A stretch of DNA of 13,692 nt, from NCBI GenBank assembly GCA_018665965.1, contig JABJBF010000023.1, positions 64,001 through 77,692 on the forward strand, read 5' to 3'. This stretch comes from Candidatus Falkowbacteria bacterium. Lineage in GTDB: Bacteria; Patescibacteriota; Patescibacteriia; UBA11705; JABHMO01. Of the stretch, positions 9,347-13,466 are shown piece by piece. Numbering within the stretch: the first letter of the stretch is position 1; each line of letters starts with the position of its first letter. The translations under genes and the position numbers were made by a program. The notes under the pieces were generated by a model. That model did not search any database and was not told the origin of the DNA. It was given only the letters and a program-made list of their open reading frames with translations.

Positions 9347-10816
9347 ATGGAACAAAACGAAGAAGCAGTTCGCCTGCAAAAATTAGAAAAACTACAATCA
9401 ATGGGAGTAGAGCCTTATCCAGCTAAGTTTGACAAGAAACAGACTCTGGCTGAATGTAAAGAAATGAAGGAGGGCAAAAAAGTAAAGACTGCCGGTCGTT
9501 TAGTAATGTTTCGTGATATGGGCAAATTAACCTTTGCTCACTTAAGTGACTTTTCTGGTCGCATGCAAATTGCGTTCAAGCAAGATGATTTAGGTAAGGA
9601 TGATTATAAACAATTACAAAAAATAATTGATCTGGGTGATTTTATTGGAGTGGAAGGTGAGCTTTTTGTAACGCACAAAGGTGAACTAACTATCCTTGTT
9701 AATAAATGGACCTTTCTTGGTAAAGCTTTGAAACCATTACCTGAAAAATGGCATGGACTGAAAGATGTGGAAGCAACATACCGTCAGCGTTACTTGGATT
9801 TGATCTCCAATCCGGAAACCATGCAACGCTTTCAACTCCGTAGTAAATTTATCAGAGCTCTGCGGGAGTTTTATTGGCAAGAAGATTTTTTCGAAGTTGA
9901 GACTCCGACTTTACTGCATAGTGCCACTGGCGCGCATGCCAAACCTTACAAGACCCATAATAACGGTTTAGATATTGATGTGTTTCTTCGAATCTCACAT
10001 GAACTTCCATTGAAGCAATTGATCATTGGTGGTTATGATAAAATTTTTGAAATTGGCAAAGCATTCAGGAATGAAGGTATTGACCCATCACATTTACCAG
10101 AGCATACTCATTTAGAACATTATTGTGCTTATTGGGATTTTGAAGATAATATAAAATTCACTGAAAAGATGTTTGAATTTATTTTTAAGAAATTAAATTT
10201 ACCACATGAACTTGAAATTACCGGTAAGGATGGCAAAAAACGGAAAGTTAATTTCAAAACTCCGTGGAAGCGAGTGGACTTTATTGAGTTGGTAAAGAAA
10301 GATTGTGGGTTAGACGTTGCTAAGTATAAGAACCCAAAAGATTTAGTGAAAGATTTGAAAAAGAAGAAGATTCAAGTTGATGATATGGAGCATATGGGAC
10401 TGGCAACTTTGATTGATAACCTTTACAAAAAAGTTTCTCGACCAAAAATTATTGATCCAGTATTTTTATATCATTATCCAATTGAATTACAGCCCTTGGC
10501 GCGACGTAATGATGATGATTCAGAAATCGTTGACCAATTTCAGTTGGTTGTCGGTGGTTGGGAAATTGTCAAAGCTTATTCAGAGTTAGTTGACCCAATA
10601 GATCAAGAAAAACGATTCAAGGATCAGGCGAAACTTAAAAAATCTGGTGATGACGAAACCATGGAAGGTGATCCAGAATTTGTAGATTCAATGAAATACG
10701 GCATGCCACCAATTTCTGGTTGGGGAATGGGAATTGATCGAATTTTAACAATCCTGACTGAGCAAGATAATCTTCGTGATGTAGTTTTCTTTCCGTTGAT
10801 GAAACCAAAAGAATAA
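9347..10816 (+). CDS. lysS: Lysyl-tRNA synthetase, class II.
   Basis: 489 aa. The N-terminal OB-fold anticodon-binding domain is followed by a class II core with ...GKAFRNEGIDPSHLPEHT... (motif 2) and ...GMPPISGWGMGIDRILTIL (motif 3). Confidence 0.92.
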   Translation: MEQNEEAVRLQKLEKLQSMGVEPYPAKFDKKQTLAECKEMKEGKKVKTAGRLVMFRDMGKLTFAHLSDFSGRMQIAFKQDDLGKDDYKQLQKIIDLGDFIGVEGELFVTHKGELTILVNKWTFLGKALKPLPEKWHGLKDVEATYRQRYLDLISNPETMQRFQLRSKFIRALREFYWQEDFFEVETPTLLHSATGAHAKPYKTHNNGLDIDVFLRISHELPLKQLIIGGYDKIFEIGKAFRNEGIDPSHLPEHTHLEHYCAYWDFEDNIKFTEKMFEFIFKKLNLPHELEITGKDGKKRKVNFKTPWKRVDFIELVKKDCGLDVAKYKNPKDLVKDLKKKKIQVDDMEHMGLATLIDNLYKKVSRPKIIDPVFLYHYPIELQPLARRNDDDSEIVDQFQLVVGGWEIVKAYSELVDPIDQEKRFKDQAKLKKSGDDETMEGDPEFVDSMKYGMPPISGWGMGIDRILTILTEQDNLRDVVFFPLMKPKE

Positions 10817-10858
10817 ATATTACACAAATATTGTACAAATATTAAACAAATATTATTA
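10815..10858 (+). repeat. Four tandem copies of an 11-nt unit AAATATTnnnn immediately after the lysS stop.
   Basis: aaatattacac aaatattgtac aaatattaaac aaatattatta. Confidence 0.45.
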
Positions 10859-10861
10859 ATA

Positions 10862-10896
10862 AAAAACTCCGGTTCAATGTTGAGCACGGAGTTTTT
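10862..10896 (+). terminator. Palindromic intrinsic terminator for lysS, potentially bidirectional.
   Basis: aaaactccg - 15-nt loop - cggagttttt. An A-run precedes and a T-run follows, so it can terminate in either direction. Confidence 0.55.
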
Positions 10897-10902
10897 AGTT
10901 AG

Positions 10903-10935
10903 AAAAAAGCCCTAACCGATTGTCTGGTTAGGGCT
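10903..10935 (-). terminator. Intrinsic terminator oriented for minus-strand transcripts.
   Basis: Perfect 9-10 bp stem gccctaacc / ggttagggc with an 8-nt loop. AAAAAA precedes it on the plus strand, which is a U-run on the minus strand. Confidence 0.45.
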
Positions 10936-10985
10936 GTAGCGAAGCACACCTTCCGCTCGGGGCAGAGCGAGGAGGATTGTAAATC
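10903..10985 (-). ncRNA. Candidate small RNA of about 80 nt on the minus strand, with a CCUCCUC anti-SD motif, two GC hairpins and an intrinsic terminator.
   Basis: The minus-strand reading is ...tttact-17-tataat (plus-strand attata at 10987-10992), then uugauuuacaauCCUCCUCgcucugccccgagcg (hairpin), gaaggugugcuucgc (hairpin), and a terminator hairpin plus U-run. There is no ORF. This rests purely on structure and promoter logic. Confidence 0.25.
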
Positions 10986-11114
10986 AATTATAATATATGT
11001 AATGAAACAAGTAAAGTGAGATCACGTACCGAAATAAGGTCAAGAGCTTGGCAACATTTGTAGTGGAGTTAAATGTAATTAATTCTAGGATATAAATGTT
11101 CATAATTATTGTAT

Positions 11115-11245
11115 TTAGCCACCTGGCCCTGAAAGGGCCAGGCTAAGTTTTGTAAAGGCTACTAAAGTAGCCTGAAGAGACTTAGCCCCATTTATGGGGG
11201 TTTAGAATACAAATAGCCTGGGGTTTTCAACCCCAGGTGGCTAAG
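11115..11245. repeat. GC-rich nested inverted-repeat element with four hairpins and the GGCTAAG/CTTAGCC motif four times. It is a candidate structured ncRNA or riboswitch-like switch, or alternatively a MITE-like palindromic repeat.
   Basis: Hairpin A is 11115-11147 (ttagcc-ca-cctggccc-tgaaa-gggccagg-ctaag). Hairpin C is 11157-11172 (ggctac-taaa-gtagcc). Hairpin D is 11186-11199 (cccca-ttta-tgggg). Hairpin B is 11214-11245 (tagcctgggg-ttttcaa-ccccagg-tgg-ctaag). The 5' half of A (ttagccacctgg, 11115-11126) is perfectly complementary to the 3' half of B (ccaggtggctaa, 11233-11244). This gives mutually exclusive local and long-range folds. Confidence 0.4.
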
Positions 11246-11299
11246 TAGGCAAAATTTAACTCATTAATATTGCAAAGGTATTGAACCATTACGACGTAC

Positions 11300-11328
11300 T
11301 TGACAATTTAAGATTTATGTTATATACT
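11300..11328 (+). promoter_or_regulatory. Consensus sigma70 promoter TTGACA-17-TATACT for the zinc-ribbon gene.
   Basis: ttgaca is at 11300-11305, with a 17-nt spacer and tatact at 11323-11328. Alternatively TGn-TATATA (extended -10) at 11318-11326. Confidence 0.6.
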
Positions 11329-11371
11329 GTATTCTTCTAGTGACAGCTGTTAATTTAGTGGAGGTAATATC

Positions 11372-11581
11372 ATGAGTGTTGTAATTTGTCGGGACTGCGG
11401 GAAAAGCAAGTCTTTTTCTGCAATTGTCAGTGAGACTGGAGTGTGCAAGGATTGTGATGGGAAGCTGAGTGGTGAGAGAAGGACTCAGGCGCGCAATGCA
11501 GCGACATTCTCCACGTTCAAATTTGGCTCTGACAGAGAGAGGGAGGAAAGAATTGCTCATTTGGCCAGTATTGATCGCTAA
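11372..11581 (+). CDS. Small C4 zinc-ribbon protein of 69 aa (CxxC-x15-CxxC at the N-terminus, charged C-terminal tail). It resembles FmdB/zinc-ribbon-type putative regulators. GC-rich.
   Basis: SD GGAGG at 11360-11364 lies 7 nt before the ATG. MSVVICRDCGKSKSFSAIVSETGVCKDCDGKL.... A consensus promoter lies upstream and a strong terminator follows the stop. GC is about 48-50% against about 33% for the genome. The overlapping minus ORF at 11315-11674 and the + ORF at 11469-11657 are treated as artefacts. Confidence 0.6.
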   Translation: MSVVICRDCGKSKSFSAIVSETGVCKDCDGKLSGERRTQARNAATFSTFKFGSDREREERIAHLASIDR

Positions 11582-11611
11582 TAAGTATTTAGCTAGAAAT
11601 GATACACAAGA

Positions 11612-11642
11612 AGGCGCGAAACAATGTTTCGCGCCTTTTTTA
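11612..11642 (+). terminator. Strong rho-independent terminator.
   Basis: aggcgcgaaaca-a-tgtttcgcgcct is a perfect 12-nt inverted repeat (11612-11636) followed by TTTTTT. Confidence 0.7.
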
Positions 11643-11915
11643 GTACATTTTGAATAAAAATGCCCCAAATGCACTGTGCAAATGGGGCTCCTCCAGATTT
11701 AGGTGCAGCCATATAGGGATTGTTACTGAATACAGCTTCTACTGCAATTCTCAAATTTTAGCTATTATCTCCTAAAATTCTTTCAACAATATTAATACAT
11801 TGCCTCATGAATTTTTGAAGATTCTATCACAGGATTTTAGAGTTTCGTGACGAACCTGTTTTCTGTAACAAGCCCTTAAGGAGGACTGAGCAATATAGCA
11901 TACATTTTTGGTTTT

Positions 11916-11962
11916 GTCAACCTGTTGTTCTACAGCCATGCAGTATCGCATGGCAGGTTGAC
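11916..11962 (+). promoter_or_regulatory. Nested stem-loop just upstream of the putative serS promoter. An orphan AAGGAGG at 11877-11883 precedes it.
   Basis: gtcaacctg(9 bp)-ttgttctacag-ccatgc-agtatc-gcatgg-caggttgac. An overlapping second hairpin follows: accttg...caaggt (11961-11987). The element lies within a 560-nt ORF-free region. Confidence 0.3.
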
Positions 11963-11991
11963 CTTGAGTTGACCGAAAGGCCAAGGTTATT

Positions 11992-12020
11992 TTGCTAAAT
12001 TTTGTGATATTTAGTATAAT
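11992..12020 (+). promoter_or_regulatory. Candidate sigma70 promoter TTGCTA-17-TATAAT for serS.
   Basis: ttgcta is at 11992-11997, with a 17-nt spacer and tataat at 12015-12020. A second TATAAT lies at about 12127-12132, after a ccccttgggg palindrome. Confidence 0.45.
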
Positions 12021-12200
12021 AGTTCATATGAAAACACCTAATAAACAATACTAAATACCCAATTCTTACTGAAAATTATCGACTGGACATTTCATATTGT
12101 ATATTTTCCTATTTTTCCCCTTGGGGGTATAATATTTTTGATATTTTATAAATATCTCAACTCTTAACTTTATAAACTTTTTAACTTTTAACTAAATAAT

Positions 12201-13466
12201 ATGCTAGACATAAAATACATTCGTGAAAACAAGGAGCAGTTGAAACAAATTGCTCGACATAAAAATATTCAGGTTGATATTGATAAGCTTTTACAATTAG
12301 ATGAAAAACGTAGAAAGCTAACGCAACAACTTGAGGAATTACGCACTCGCAAGAATCAGGTTAGTAAACAAATTCCACAAATGCAGGAAAGTGAAAAACA
12401 ACAAGCGTTTGTTGAAATGAAGGAAGTTAGCGCACTGCAAGACGAGATTGAGGGCAAGTTAAAGCCACTTCTGACTGAATATGAAAATTTAATGTTGAGT
12501 GTTCCAATGTATATTCATGAAAATGTGCCAATTGGTGCAGATGAAAGTGGTAACATTGAAATTGAAAAGGTGGGTGAACCGACAAAGTTTGATTTTCCTC
12601 CCAAGGATCATATGACACTTGGTGCTGATCTGGATATTATTGACAATGAACGCGCTGTAAAAATTGGAGGTAGTCGATCTTACTTATTGAAAGGTGATGG
12701 CGCGCGATTGGAAGCCGCAGTTCTTAAATATGCAGAAGATTTCATTTCTCGCAAAGGTTATACTCTGATGAATGTACCAGTGATTGTTAATGAAGCTGCT
12801 ATGAGAGGCACTGGCTTTTTCCCTGGATCAGAGGATGAAACCTATCACCTGGAAAAAGATGACAAATATTTAGTTGGTACATCTGAAGTTGCTATTGGTT
12901 CATATCATGCTAATGAGATTTTAAAAGAAGAAGATTTACCACTTCGTTACGCCGGCTTTTCAGTTTGTTTTCGCCGTGAAGCAGGTTCTTATGGAAAAGA
13001 TACTCATGGTTTGTACAGAGTTCATCAGTTTATGAAGATTGAGCAGTTTGTTATTTGCAAAAATGATGAGAAGGTATCTATGGAAATGCATGCTGAATTA
13101 TTGAACAATTCAAAAGAGTTTATGCAAAGTCTAAAGTTACCATTCCGAGTTTTGAATATTTGTACTGGTGACATGGGACAAGGTAAATATTATATGAATG
13201 ATATTGAGACCTGGATGCCTAGTCGAGAGGGCTATGGTGAAACTCATAGTGCATCAGCTTTGCTGGACTTTCAATCACGTCGATTAAATCTTCGATATAA
13301 AGACAGTGAAGGTCAAATTCATTTTTGTCATACATTAAATAATACAGTTGTAGCTACACCAAGAGTTTTGATTCCGTTAATGGAAATTTATCAAACCAAG
13401 GATGGTAAAATTCAAGTTCCAGAAGTTCTTCAGCCGTATATTGATAATCAGCAGGAGATTGGTTAA
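12201..13466 (+). CDS. serS: Seryl-tRNA synthetase, class II.
   Basis: 421 aa. The N-terminal coiled-coil tRNA-binding arm (KEQLKQIARHK...LEELRTRKNQVSKQI) is followed by the catalytic core with ...FRREAGSYGKDTHGLYRVHQF (motif 2) and ...GETHSASA.... No T-box leader sequence was recognised upstream. Confidence 0.92.
   Translation: MLDIKYIRENKEQLKQIARHKNIQVDIDKLLQLDEKRRKLTQQLEELRTRKNQVSKQIPQMQESEKQQAFVEMKEVSALQDEIEGKLKPLLTEYENLMLSVPMYIHENVPIGADESGNIEIEKVGEPTKFDFPPKDHMTLGADLDIIDNERAVKIGGSRSYLLKGDGARLEAAVLKYAEDFISRKGYTLMNVPVIVNEAAMRGTGFFPGSEDETYHLEKDDKYLVGTSEVAIGSYHANEILKEEDLPLRYAGFSVCFRREAGSYGKDTHGLYRVHQFMKIEQFVICKNDEKVSMEMHAELLNNSKEFMQSLKLPFRVLNICTGDMGQGKYYMNDIETWMPSREGYGETHSASALLDFQSRRLNLRYKDSEGQIHFCHTLNNTVVATPRVLIPLMEIYQTKDGKIQVPEVLQPYIDNQQEIG

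Follow-up and report, generated by a model that had tools for sequence, protein, structure and literature searches.

The spacer between lysS and serS in the stretch of DNA analysed here (13,692 nucleotides in full, hereafter the window) is unusually long at 1385 bp and is home to a cluster of nested hairpins, which raises the question of what kind of element this structure represents. The initial annotation, made from the letters alone, left two answers side by side: a novel structured RNA with the logic of a riboswitch or attenuator, or a MITE bounded by 12-bp termini. Our analysis indicates that the 130-nt structure is probably the core of a non-coding, non-autonomous interspersed repeat of the MITE/REPIN class, carried by an uncultured marine Falkowbacteria-like Patescibacteria species, and the best explanation is that this repeat recently spread in one Falkowbacteria-like lineage.

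The window sequence is identical to contigs of several marine metagenomes and to two metagenome-assembled genomes (MAGs), and the closest named relatives of LysS and of proteins of the neighbouring loci are annotated as 'Candidatus Falkowbacteria' or Patescibacteria. In addition to the two tRNA synthetase genes that delimit the spacer, the window features a hisS-type class II tRNA synthetase gene (PF00587 plus an HGTP anticodon domain), mreB, mreC, mreD, a PBP2-type gene, greA and a GxxExxY/PDDEXK_3 gene. The lysS stop codon and terminator-like hairpins lie upstream of the hairpin core, and a small orphan gene lies downstream of it:

9347-10816, lysS
12201-13466, serS
11372-11581, + strand, downstream orphan gene encoding a Cys-rich protein of 69 aa, with GGAGG 7 nt before the ATG

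A search of 1.84 billion representatives returned only its own cluster for the 69-aa protein, together with two marginal (E about 5e-4) and partial matches to much longer proteins. This ORF lies outside the repeat described below, and the gene found at that place is a different one for each copy.

The hairpin core consists of two inverted, bulged modules that enclose two smaller hairpins:

11115-11245, + strand, core of 130 nt, in which modules A and B (inverted, bulged hairpins) enclose small hairpins C and D
11115-11146, + strand, module A, TTAGCC(ACC)TGGCCC-TGAAA-GGGCCAGGCTAA followed by GTTTTG, terminator-like on the + strand
11122-11142, hairpin A
11156-11173, + strand, small hairpin C, AGGCTAC-TAAA-GTAGCCT
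11186-11199, + strand, small hairpin D, CCCCA-TTTA-TGGGG
11213-11244, - strand, module B, which is module A inverted and reads TTAGCC(ACC)TGGGGTT-GAAA-AACCCCAGGCTA followed by TTTGTATTC on the - strand, also terminator-like
11216-11238, hairpin B

All four hairpins of the initial annotation are therefore present, and its description of the long-range pairing was accurate: TTAGCCACCTGG (11115-11126), the 5' arm of A, is perfectly complementary to CCAGGTGGCTAA (11233-11244), the 3' arm of B, and forms with it a 12-bp long-range inverted repeat, while A and B are near mirror images with 34-nt arms that are 79% complementary. Module A and the reverse complement of module B amount to two copies of a single module of ~32 nt, TTAGCC(ACC)TGG-N11-CCAGGCTA, and both match the pattern TTAGCCACCTGG-N11-CCAGGCTA. 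Folding of this module by itself gives a long hairpin from which the three nucleotides ACC bulge. Some finer points required correction. The heptamer GGCTAAG/CTTAGCC had been counted four times; it occurs exactly three times (11141 on the + strand, 11181 on the - strand and 11239 on the + strand) and the supposed fourth instance is TTTAGCC, with one mismatch. When the whole window was shuffled 200 times, three matches were reached in 21 cases, so the count alone is not unusual for it. The loop of hairpin A, previously read as GNRA-like, is not a GNRA tetraloop: it is either a pentaloop, UGAAA, or, with U-A as the closing pair, a triloop, GAA, and pairing in a GAAA register would disrupt the stem. 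The label 'GC-rich' holds in a relative sense only, as the core has a GC content of 44-45% versus a local background of roughly 30-40% (100-nt windows).

The 130-nt element is real, but it proved to be the core of a larger unit, for which four full copies with 91-95% identity were found by blastn and nhmmer at unrelated intergenic sites of one species:

11030-11292, + strand, full repeat unit (CGAAAT...CCATTAC), 263 nt, bounded by flanking direct repeats
11040-11074, + strand, left outer imperfect inverted-repeat arm, TCAAGAGCTTGGCAAC...GAGTTAAAT, containing GGTCAA, which is an outward-facing TTGACC on the - strand
11254-11284, + strand, right outer imperfect inverted-repeat arm, ATTTAACTC...TTGCAAAGGTATTGA

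The copies are those of the window, of L013 (the same locus as L009), of L015 (L015/L024) and of L016, the latter three recovered by a metagenome scan from the same sample series. In blastn alignments with the window, the three other copies extend over about 250-310 nt at 90-96% identity, and the nhmmer profile scores of the copies range from 322 to 330 bits. The size of the unit is about 263-278 bp over the copies. The block that is conserved between them continues to 11305, with CTTGACA (11299-11305) in common and unrelated flanks beyond it (alignments A1 and A2). One MAG (GCA_018703365.1) features the window locus together with an L015-type locus, and another (GCA_018670895.1) the window locus together with an L013-type locus; the loci therefore come from one species. 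In two assemblies the contig ends inside the repeat. A check for near-identical copies elsewhere, a result that had been named in advance as favouring a selfish repeat, was thus positive, with copies in the same genome.

The outer arms (AAGGTCAAGAGCTTGGCAAC / GTTGCAAAGGTATTGAACC) are identical at 26 of 35 positions after reverse complementing, with a weaker match at the extreme tips, and belong to the repeated unit in every copy. Their local alignment score of 23 compares with 13.1 +/- 2.3 in shuffled sequences (maximum 26 in 1000), and a DNA fold pairs the left arm with the right. These outer inverted repeats are imperfect and lie about 75 and 40 nt beyond the 12-bp arms. The earlier suggestion of a MITE therefore stands with respect to the kind of element, while the proposed 12-bp termini turn out to lie within a longer element, as the outer arms of its two inverted hairpin modules. 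Its size (MITEs are smaller than about 400-600 bp), the several dispersed copies, the inverted repeats and the lack of a transposase gene of its own are all features of a MITE. No transposase genes were detected in the fetched loci, and the only ORFs that overlap the unit encode 39 aa and 20 aa, both on the - strand. The genes near the copies are unrelated and mostly have housekeeping functions (a CCA-adding enzyme, radical SAM enzymes, a glycosyltransferase, an FAD protein, a rhomboid protease and rpoD). Those directly downstream of the four copies encode the 69-aa orphan protein, an 88-aa membrane protein, the rhomboid protease and a 304-aa ORF.

The tally of four full copies plus one degenerate pair of modules derives from loci chosen for their matches, about 77 kb in all. 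No more copies were found in the 10 kb to the left of the window locus or in the L015 locus when extended to 20 kb. A scan of 185,579 species genomes with the module pattern TAGCCACCTGG-N9-13-CCAGGCTA gave no match in Falkowbacteria-like genomes. Its four matches fell in unrelated taxa (Chloroflexi, Planctomycetota, Halopseudomonas and Saccharibacteria) and were presumed to be due to chance, and four metagenome matches (L010, L011, L012 and L017) were discarded as chance matches inside high-GC sequence.

Comparison with relatives showed that the unit is absent from corresponding sites. The lysS-serS spacer measures only 140 bp in a sister species whose LysS is 87% identical and 280 bp in a relative at 79%, versus 1385 bp in the window, and the only spacer sequence recognisably common with relatives is the last roughly 100 nt before serS. 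An 85% identical orthologue of the FAD-protein gene that flanks the L013 copy adjoins a 198-bp spacer that lacks the element, and its neighbour is a different gene. The rhomboid gene at L015 has no close orthologue (the next match is 45% identical). Neither the nhmmer profile nor a covariance model (R1) gave a match in the relatives' loci. Among these relatives no clean empty site with the same flanks was found, as they lack the whole surrounding region or have other neighbours. A precise empty site would be predicted to join AATAACAACTCAC directly to TTGACATTTCC at the L015 locus and GATCACGTAC to TTGACAATTTAAG at the window locus.

The ends of the unit coincide with short direct repeats, and a promoter follows immediately downstream of the right one:

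11023-11029, left flanking direct repeat CACGTAC, a putative target-site duplication
11293-11299, right flanking direct repeat GACGTAC, separating the element from the -35 box
11300-11328, + strand, sigma-70-type promoter TTGACA-17-TATACT of the 69-aa ORF, identified by a consensus scan

The two window repeats match at six of seven positions. At the L015/L024 copy, AACTCAC is present at both ends (7/7, or 9/9 when the preceding AC is counted; ACAACTCAC), whereas the L013 copy has no such repeat, and the left end of the L016 copy is degenerate; flanking 7-bp direct repeats are therefore found in two of the three testable copies. All four copies end 7-8 bp upstream of a TTGACA -35 box, after the right repeat or the equivalent variable bases, and in each case a start codon follows roughly 45-80 nt past the TTGACA. 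In three of the four, the promoter scan found a -10 hexamer 17 nt downstream (TATACT, TATAAT and TAATAT); at L016 the scan flagged no promoter and the sole -10 candidate is weak (TAAAAC/AAAACT). The spacer, the -10 box and the leader are not homologous between copies, which indicates four independent promoters that have only the -35 hexamer in common. Since the direct repeat sits between the element and the TTGACA, the -35 box is most simply regarded as part of the target. Alternatively, the TTGACA could be part of the element, in which case the flanking repeats would need another explanation. There is room for insertion elsewhere in the intergenic regions, with more than 100 nt at the window locus and about 30 nt at L015, and for this reason tolerance alone does not explain the constant offset. 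We infer a target preference for sites near -35 boxes, from four copies, which are few.

A comparison of the four full copies showed that the core is the most conserved part of the unit, with 5 variable columns out of 131 versus 17 out of 112 in the arms (Fisher p = 0.003). This goes against the MITE reading, since typical MITEs are best conserved at their termini and not, as here, in the interior. When the comparison was widened to seven instances of the module (A and B from each of two copies, the degenerate pair at L013 3779-3993 and a single module from another organism), four of the six upper-stem pairs were changed on both sides and 95% of cells could pair, while the lower stem, TAGCC...GGCTA, was conserved in sequence. 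Covariation of the upper stem, conservation of the stem base and conservation of the core together indicate that both hairpin formation and the sequence of the stem base matter. Such selection would be expected of a DNA hairpin recognised by a protein, as for REP/RAYT or the subterminal hairpins of transposons, and equally of an RNA hairpin.

These features suggest a mechanism in which a transposase supplied in trans would have spread the element and generated the 7-bp target duplications. The hairpin bases, TAGCC[ACC]TGG / CCAGGCTA, would be the part that is recognised by protein, which could account for a core that is better conserved than the arms and for upper stems that co-vary. Insertion may have been directed to positions 7 bp upstream of -35 hexamers, or may have been tolerated only there. 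Two side effects can be envisaged: transcription that enters from either flank may be halted at the inward-facing, terminator-like modules A and B, and the outward TTGACC at the left end may provide a -35 box for a leftward promoter. A stronger version, which we regard as rather unlikely, is a mobile repeat that actively seeks promoters, integrating 7 bp upstream of TTGACA, perhaps with a transposase guided by the TTGA(A)CC near its own ends. It would bring along two inward-facing terminator hairpins and, at its left end, an outward -35, and every insertion would thereby both insulate and rewire a promoter. In a variant of this version, the hairpin core would be a REPIN-type substrate of a hairpin-binding (HUH/RAYT-like) enzyme. 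A narrow literature search for MITEs or RAYT in Patescibacteria or the candidate phyla radiation (CPR) returned no relevant paper on such repeats.

The same proximity to promoters lends itself to another account, in which the unit would be a cis-acting DNA module that was duplicated and preserved as a promoter-upstream cassette or transcriptional insulator, akin to the 'mobile promoter' regions of PMC3488235. Modules A (+ strand) and B (- strand) would terminate transcription arriving from both sides, the role of binding a protein or absorbing supercoiling would fall to the repeated TAGCC/GGCTA motifs or to a cruciform, and the module would be retained because it shields or tunes the neighbouring promoter. 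We consider this improbable, despite several features that are in keeping with it. The -35 boxes adjoining all four copies face a gene start, the arms are less conserved than the core, and the short motif TAGCC/GGCTA is found seven times in 130 nt. A and B have terminator-like scores and each points into the element, so that they face inward from both sides; the T-runs that follow the stems, however, are weak and offset, and termination at A and B is best described as a plausible, putative side function. The outward TTGACC at the left element end lies next to the start of a divergent gene in L013, which begins 40 nt from that end, such that the promoter of that gene must overlap the element boundary. 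No regulator was identified for such a role, and sister species lack the element, their promoters evidently working without it. Above all, 91-95% identity upstream of unrelated genes still requires a mechanism of spreading, and insulation is therefore better seen as a consequence of mobility than as an alternative to it.

A structured non-coding RNA family, either paralogous sRNA genes or a cis-regulatory RNA (riboswitch or attenuator) with a functional multi-branched fold, is very improbable, although the predicted structure is a very stable one. The + strand of 11105-11255 folds at -75.6 kcal/mol, compared with -43.9 +/- 3.9 in dinucleotide shuffles (z -8.1), and the - strand at -64.6 kcal/mol (z -6.4). 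The minimum-energy fold contains a 9-bp closing helix and the complete hairpins A, B, C and D together, and at -75.0 kcal/mol it is more stable by ~16 kcal/mol than the three segments (left, middle and right) folded apart and summed (about -58.8). The two folds that had been put forward as mutually exclusive thus coexist in the best fold rather than compete, which leaves no switch. The nesting of the palindromes would instead reflect how the element is built. On the + strand, several of the single substitutions that distinguish the copies leave a G-U pair in place, and this, along with the co-varying upper stems, speaks for an RNA. Against this, compensatory changes are absent from all 84 predicted pairs in a comparison of the four full copies, and single changes that break a pair (about nine) are about as frequent as those that keep a G-U pair (about ten). 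A consensus scan detected no promoter for transcription of the core on either strand, the flanks differ between copies, and the upstream gene is divergent in three of the four, which precludes read-through into the element. The sole consensus promoter, at 11300-11328, lies downstream of the structure, and the structure consequently does not occupy a leader position. Nor is the element conserved at orthologous sites. None of the three riboswitch characteristics that were tested (leader position, covariation at orthologous positions and mutually exclusive folds) was observed, and the proposal of a riboswitch, attenuator or novel structured RNA is not upheld. The initial annotation did not recognise the sequence as any known RNA family, and Rfam 15 gave no match at gathering thresholds over the whole window. 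In E-value mode (E <= 10), 10780-12260 yielded only trivial sub-threshold hairpin matches, the best of which in the core was Acido-Lenti-1 (18.7 bits versus a threshold of 37).

The module has a wider family than the four full copies. At L013 3779-3993, two decayed modules lie head-to-head between convergent genes, and one of them features a compensated T-A to C-G change. A related single module is found on a low-GC contig, L014, which represents the same locus as the IMG/VR contig L023, encoding a phage capsid protein and an HNH endonuclease. It consists of a small hairpin, AGCCCCTTATAGGGGCT, a spacer and then TTAGCCACCTGGGATTGACACTTCCAGGCTAA, is flanked by two genes that share a strand and lies 20 nt upstream of the start codon (ATG) of the gene ahead of the capsid gene. 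Within this same-strand gene cluster the module would be transcribed, a point in favour of an RNA. D-like hairpins accompany the B-like hairpins at both L013 3779-3993 and L014/L023. No further modules were found in 156 kb of the species and its relatives with covariance model R1, in agreement with a pattern search. In scans of viral sequences, one pattern matched only L023 and a left-arm pattern had no match, and a blastn search of phage GenBank entries with the 278-nt unit was also negative.

This distribution bears on a strict REPIN, in which a doublet of REP hairpins is mobilised as single-stranded DNA by a RAYT (an IS200/IS605-type Y1 transposase) and the AT-rich arms are passengers. REP palindromes are about 30-35 nt and undergo hairpin-preserving compensatory changes. 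The core fits this description in that it consists of two inverted, 32-nt imperfect palindromes with a conserved 3-nt bulge, whose hairpin is kept by compensatory change at the top of the stem while the base is conserved, and in that the core exceeds the arms in conservation. The occurrence of degenerate module pairs in other arrangements (L013 3779-3993) and the recurrence of the module in the DNA of another organism (L014/L023) point the same way. In other respects the fit is poor enough to render a strict REPIN scarcely probable at all. No RAYT gene is present in the fetched loci, and the high, scattered copy number of REPs was not seen, with no scattered single REPs in the 156 kb. There is also no conserved GTAG: the sequences after B are GTAG, GTAA, GTAA and GTAT in the four copies, and GTAT stands before A. 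The arms form part of the repeated unit in every copy, and 7-bp direct repeats flank two of the copies. Y1 transposition is not expected to yield such repeats.

Other mobile or structured elements were also rejected. GTTAAAT/ATTTAAC resemble the R'/R'' boxes of an integron attC site, but they come in inverted order, in a unit of excessive length for such a site and with no integrase. IS200/IS605-type ends do not fit hairpins that are inverted rather than direct and accompanied by direct repeats; these repeats also rule out CTTG targeting of the IS91 type. A DGR, retron, group II intron or omega/bridge RNA was dismissed in view of the lack of a reverse transcriptase, TnpB or recombinase nearby and of any Rfam signal.

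The interpretation as a spreading MITE/REPIN-class repeat has several implications. CPR genomes are small and are regarded as poor in mobile DNA, and a recently amplified repeat family in one of them would be a useful marker of genome dynamics. The repeat also causes fragmentation of MAGs, as contigs break inside it. If the 7-bp offset reflects a choice of target and not survivorship, the element would constitute a natural example of promoter-directed insertion, and it could then rewire transcription, or insulate it, in a genome whose intergenic regions are very short. The striking nested palindrome with its 'switch-like' pairing probably represents the architecture of a repeat and not of a riboswitch.

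Among known systems, the Correia elements of Neisseria (CREE/NEMIS) offer a close comparison, being dispersed, intergenic, non-coding repeats with terminal inverted repeats, direct repeats and long stem-loops that are often located 5' of genes and influence or supply promoters (PMC3184786). The present unit resembles them in its length of ~263-278 bp, its imperfect inverted-repeat arms, the 7-bp direct repeats at two of its copies and its position adjacent to promoters. It differs from them in having no sequence relation, in an interior hairpin core that is the best conserved part, in its CPR host and in a -35 box that appears to derive from the target rather than from the element. REP, BIME and REPIN sequences (see also PMC8049555 and PMC3184786) are imperfect, bulged, GC-rich palindromes that form inverted doublets in extragenic DNA, with hairpins that resemble terminators or mRNA ends. 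Our element shares with REP/REPIN the bulged palindromic module, the inverted doublet, the compensated hairpin and the terminator-like appearance. Unlike them, it is low in copy number as far as seen, has no scattered singletons or conserved GTAG, and has its doublet set in a longer unit that brings inverted repeats and putative target duplications of its own. The sequences described as putative mobile promoters (Matus-Garcia, Nijveen & van Passel 2012; PMC3488235) resemble one another closely and lie, within one genome, upstream of genes that are not homologous. Our four copies likewise precede non-homologous genes, but only the -35 hexamer is common to them, and the repeat therefore adjoins promoters rather than carrying a whole one. 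The SPRITE, or intrinsic-terminator-like, repeats of Streptococcus pneumoniae are dispersed and contain GC-rich hairpins that resemble Rho-independent terminators (PMC3184786), whereas here two hairpins of this kind, with weak T-runs and putative terminator activity, face each other within a larger unit. Overall, the repeat can be described as a MITE/REPIN-like element of a known kind, with a possible preference for promoters as its one less ordinary feature.

The lysS-serS spacer and its surroundings contain several features beside the hairpin cluster at 11115-11245 and the repeat that carries it (window coordinates unless stated):

10815-10854: three direct repeats of AAATATTnnACAAATATT with 11-nt spacing, the first at the lysS stop codon
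11372-11581: a 69-aa Cys-rich ORF (CxxC...CxxC) with a strong ribosome-binding site and its own promoter and terminator
11920->11892, minus strand: a near-consensus promoter, TTGACA-17-TATATT
11692->11650, minus strand: a GC hairpin and T-run ending a non-coding stretch of ~235 nt
12113-12127: a small hairpin, TTTCCCCTYGGGGA, upstream of serS; also at ~11523-11537 of L018 and ~7693-7707 of L022, the serS-upstream loci of other species

The TTTCCCCTYGGGGA hairpin is kept upstream of serS in all three species and the remaining spacer has diverged. It matched no Rfam family, T-box included, and may act in this clade as a conserved serS element with a regulatory or promoter-associated role. At the other end of the spacer, the triple AAATATTnnACAAATATT repeat may constitute a protein-binding array.

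The 69-aa ORF lies in a region of locally high GC content (~0.5) and is an orphan: a comparison with 1.84 billion representative proteins returned only its own cluster and two marginal partial matches, and neither Pfam nor NCBIfam gave a match. The minus-strand promoter is followed by ~235 nt of non-coding sequence, up to the GC hairpin and T-run, and this stretch (11650-11920) may represent an sRNA or tiny-ORF gene. The promoter region is similar to the one at 769-840, which lies upstream of a 225-aa gene (repeats D3 and I21).

Downstream of serS, the window's lineage has several additional genes before alr compared with the sister species (12855-21177 of locus L001, downstream of the window), and its alr product is 523 aa rather than 381 aa, with an extra PF05635 four-helix-bundle domain. 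This region seems insertion-prone.

Related or neighbouring palindromes were found at other loci:

L016 3005-3070: two copies of a small palindrome, CCCGGTCT(T/A)(T/G)AGACCGGG, adjoining the degenerate left end of the repeat copy at this locus
L023 10560-10650 (= L014 1332-1420): one related hairpin module, on a phage-like contig from another sample
L013 3779-3993: two decayed modules, each a small hairpin plus a bulged large hairpin, head-to-head with a ~95-nt spacer

The L016 palindromes, which differ from the element's hairpins, may represent a second small repeat family. The phage-like contig encodes a capsid protein and an HNH endonuclease; 20 nt separate its module, which has TTGACA in the hairpin loop, from the downstream ATG of the gene preceding the capsid gene. 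The L013 pair, flanked by convergent genes, are older relatives of the element core in a different arrangement.
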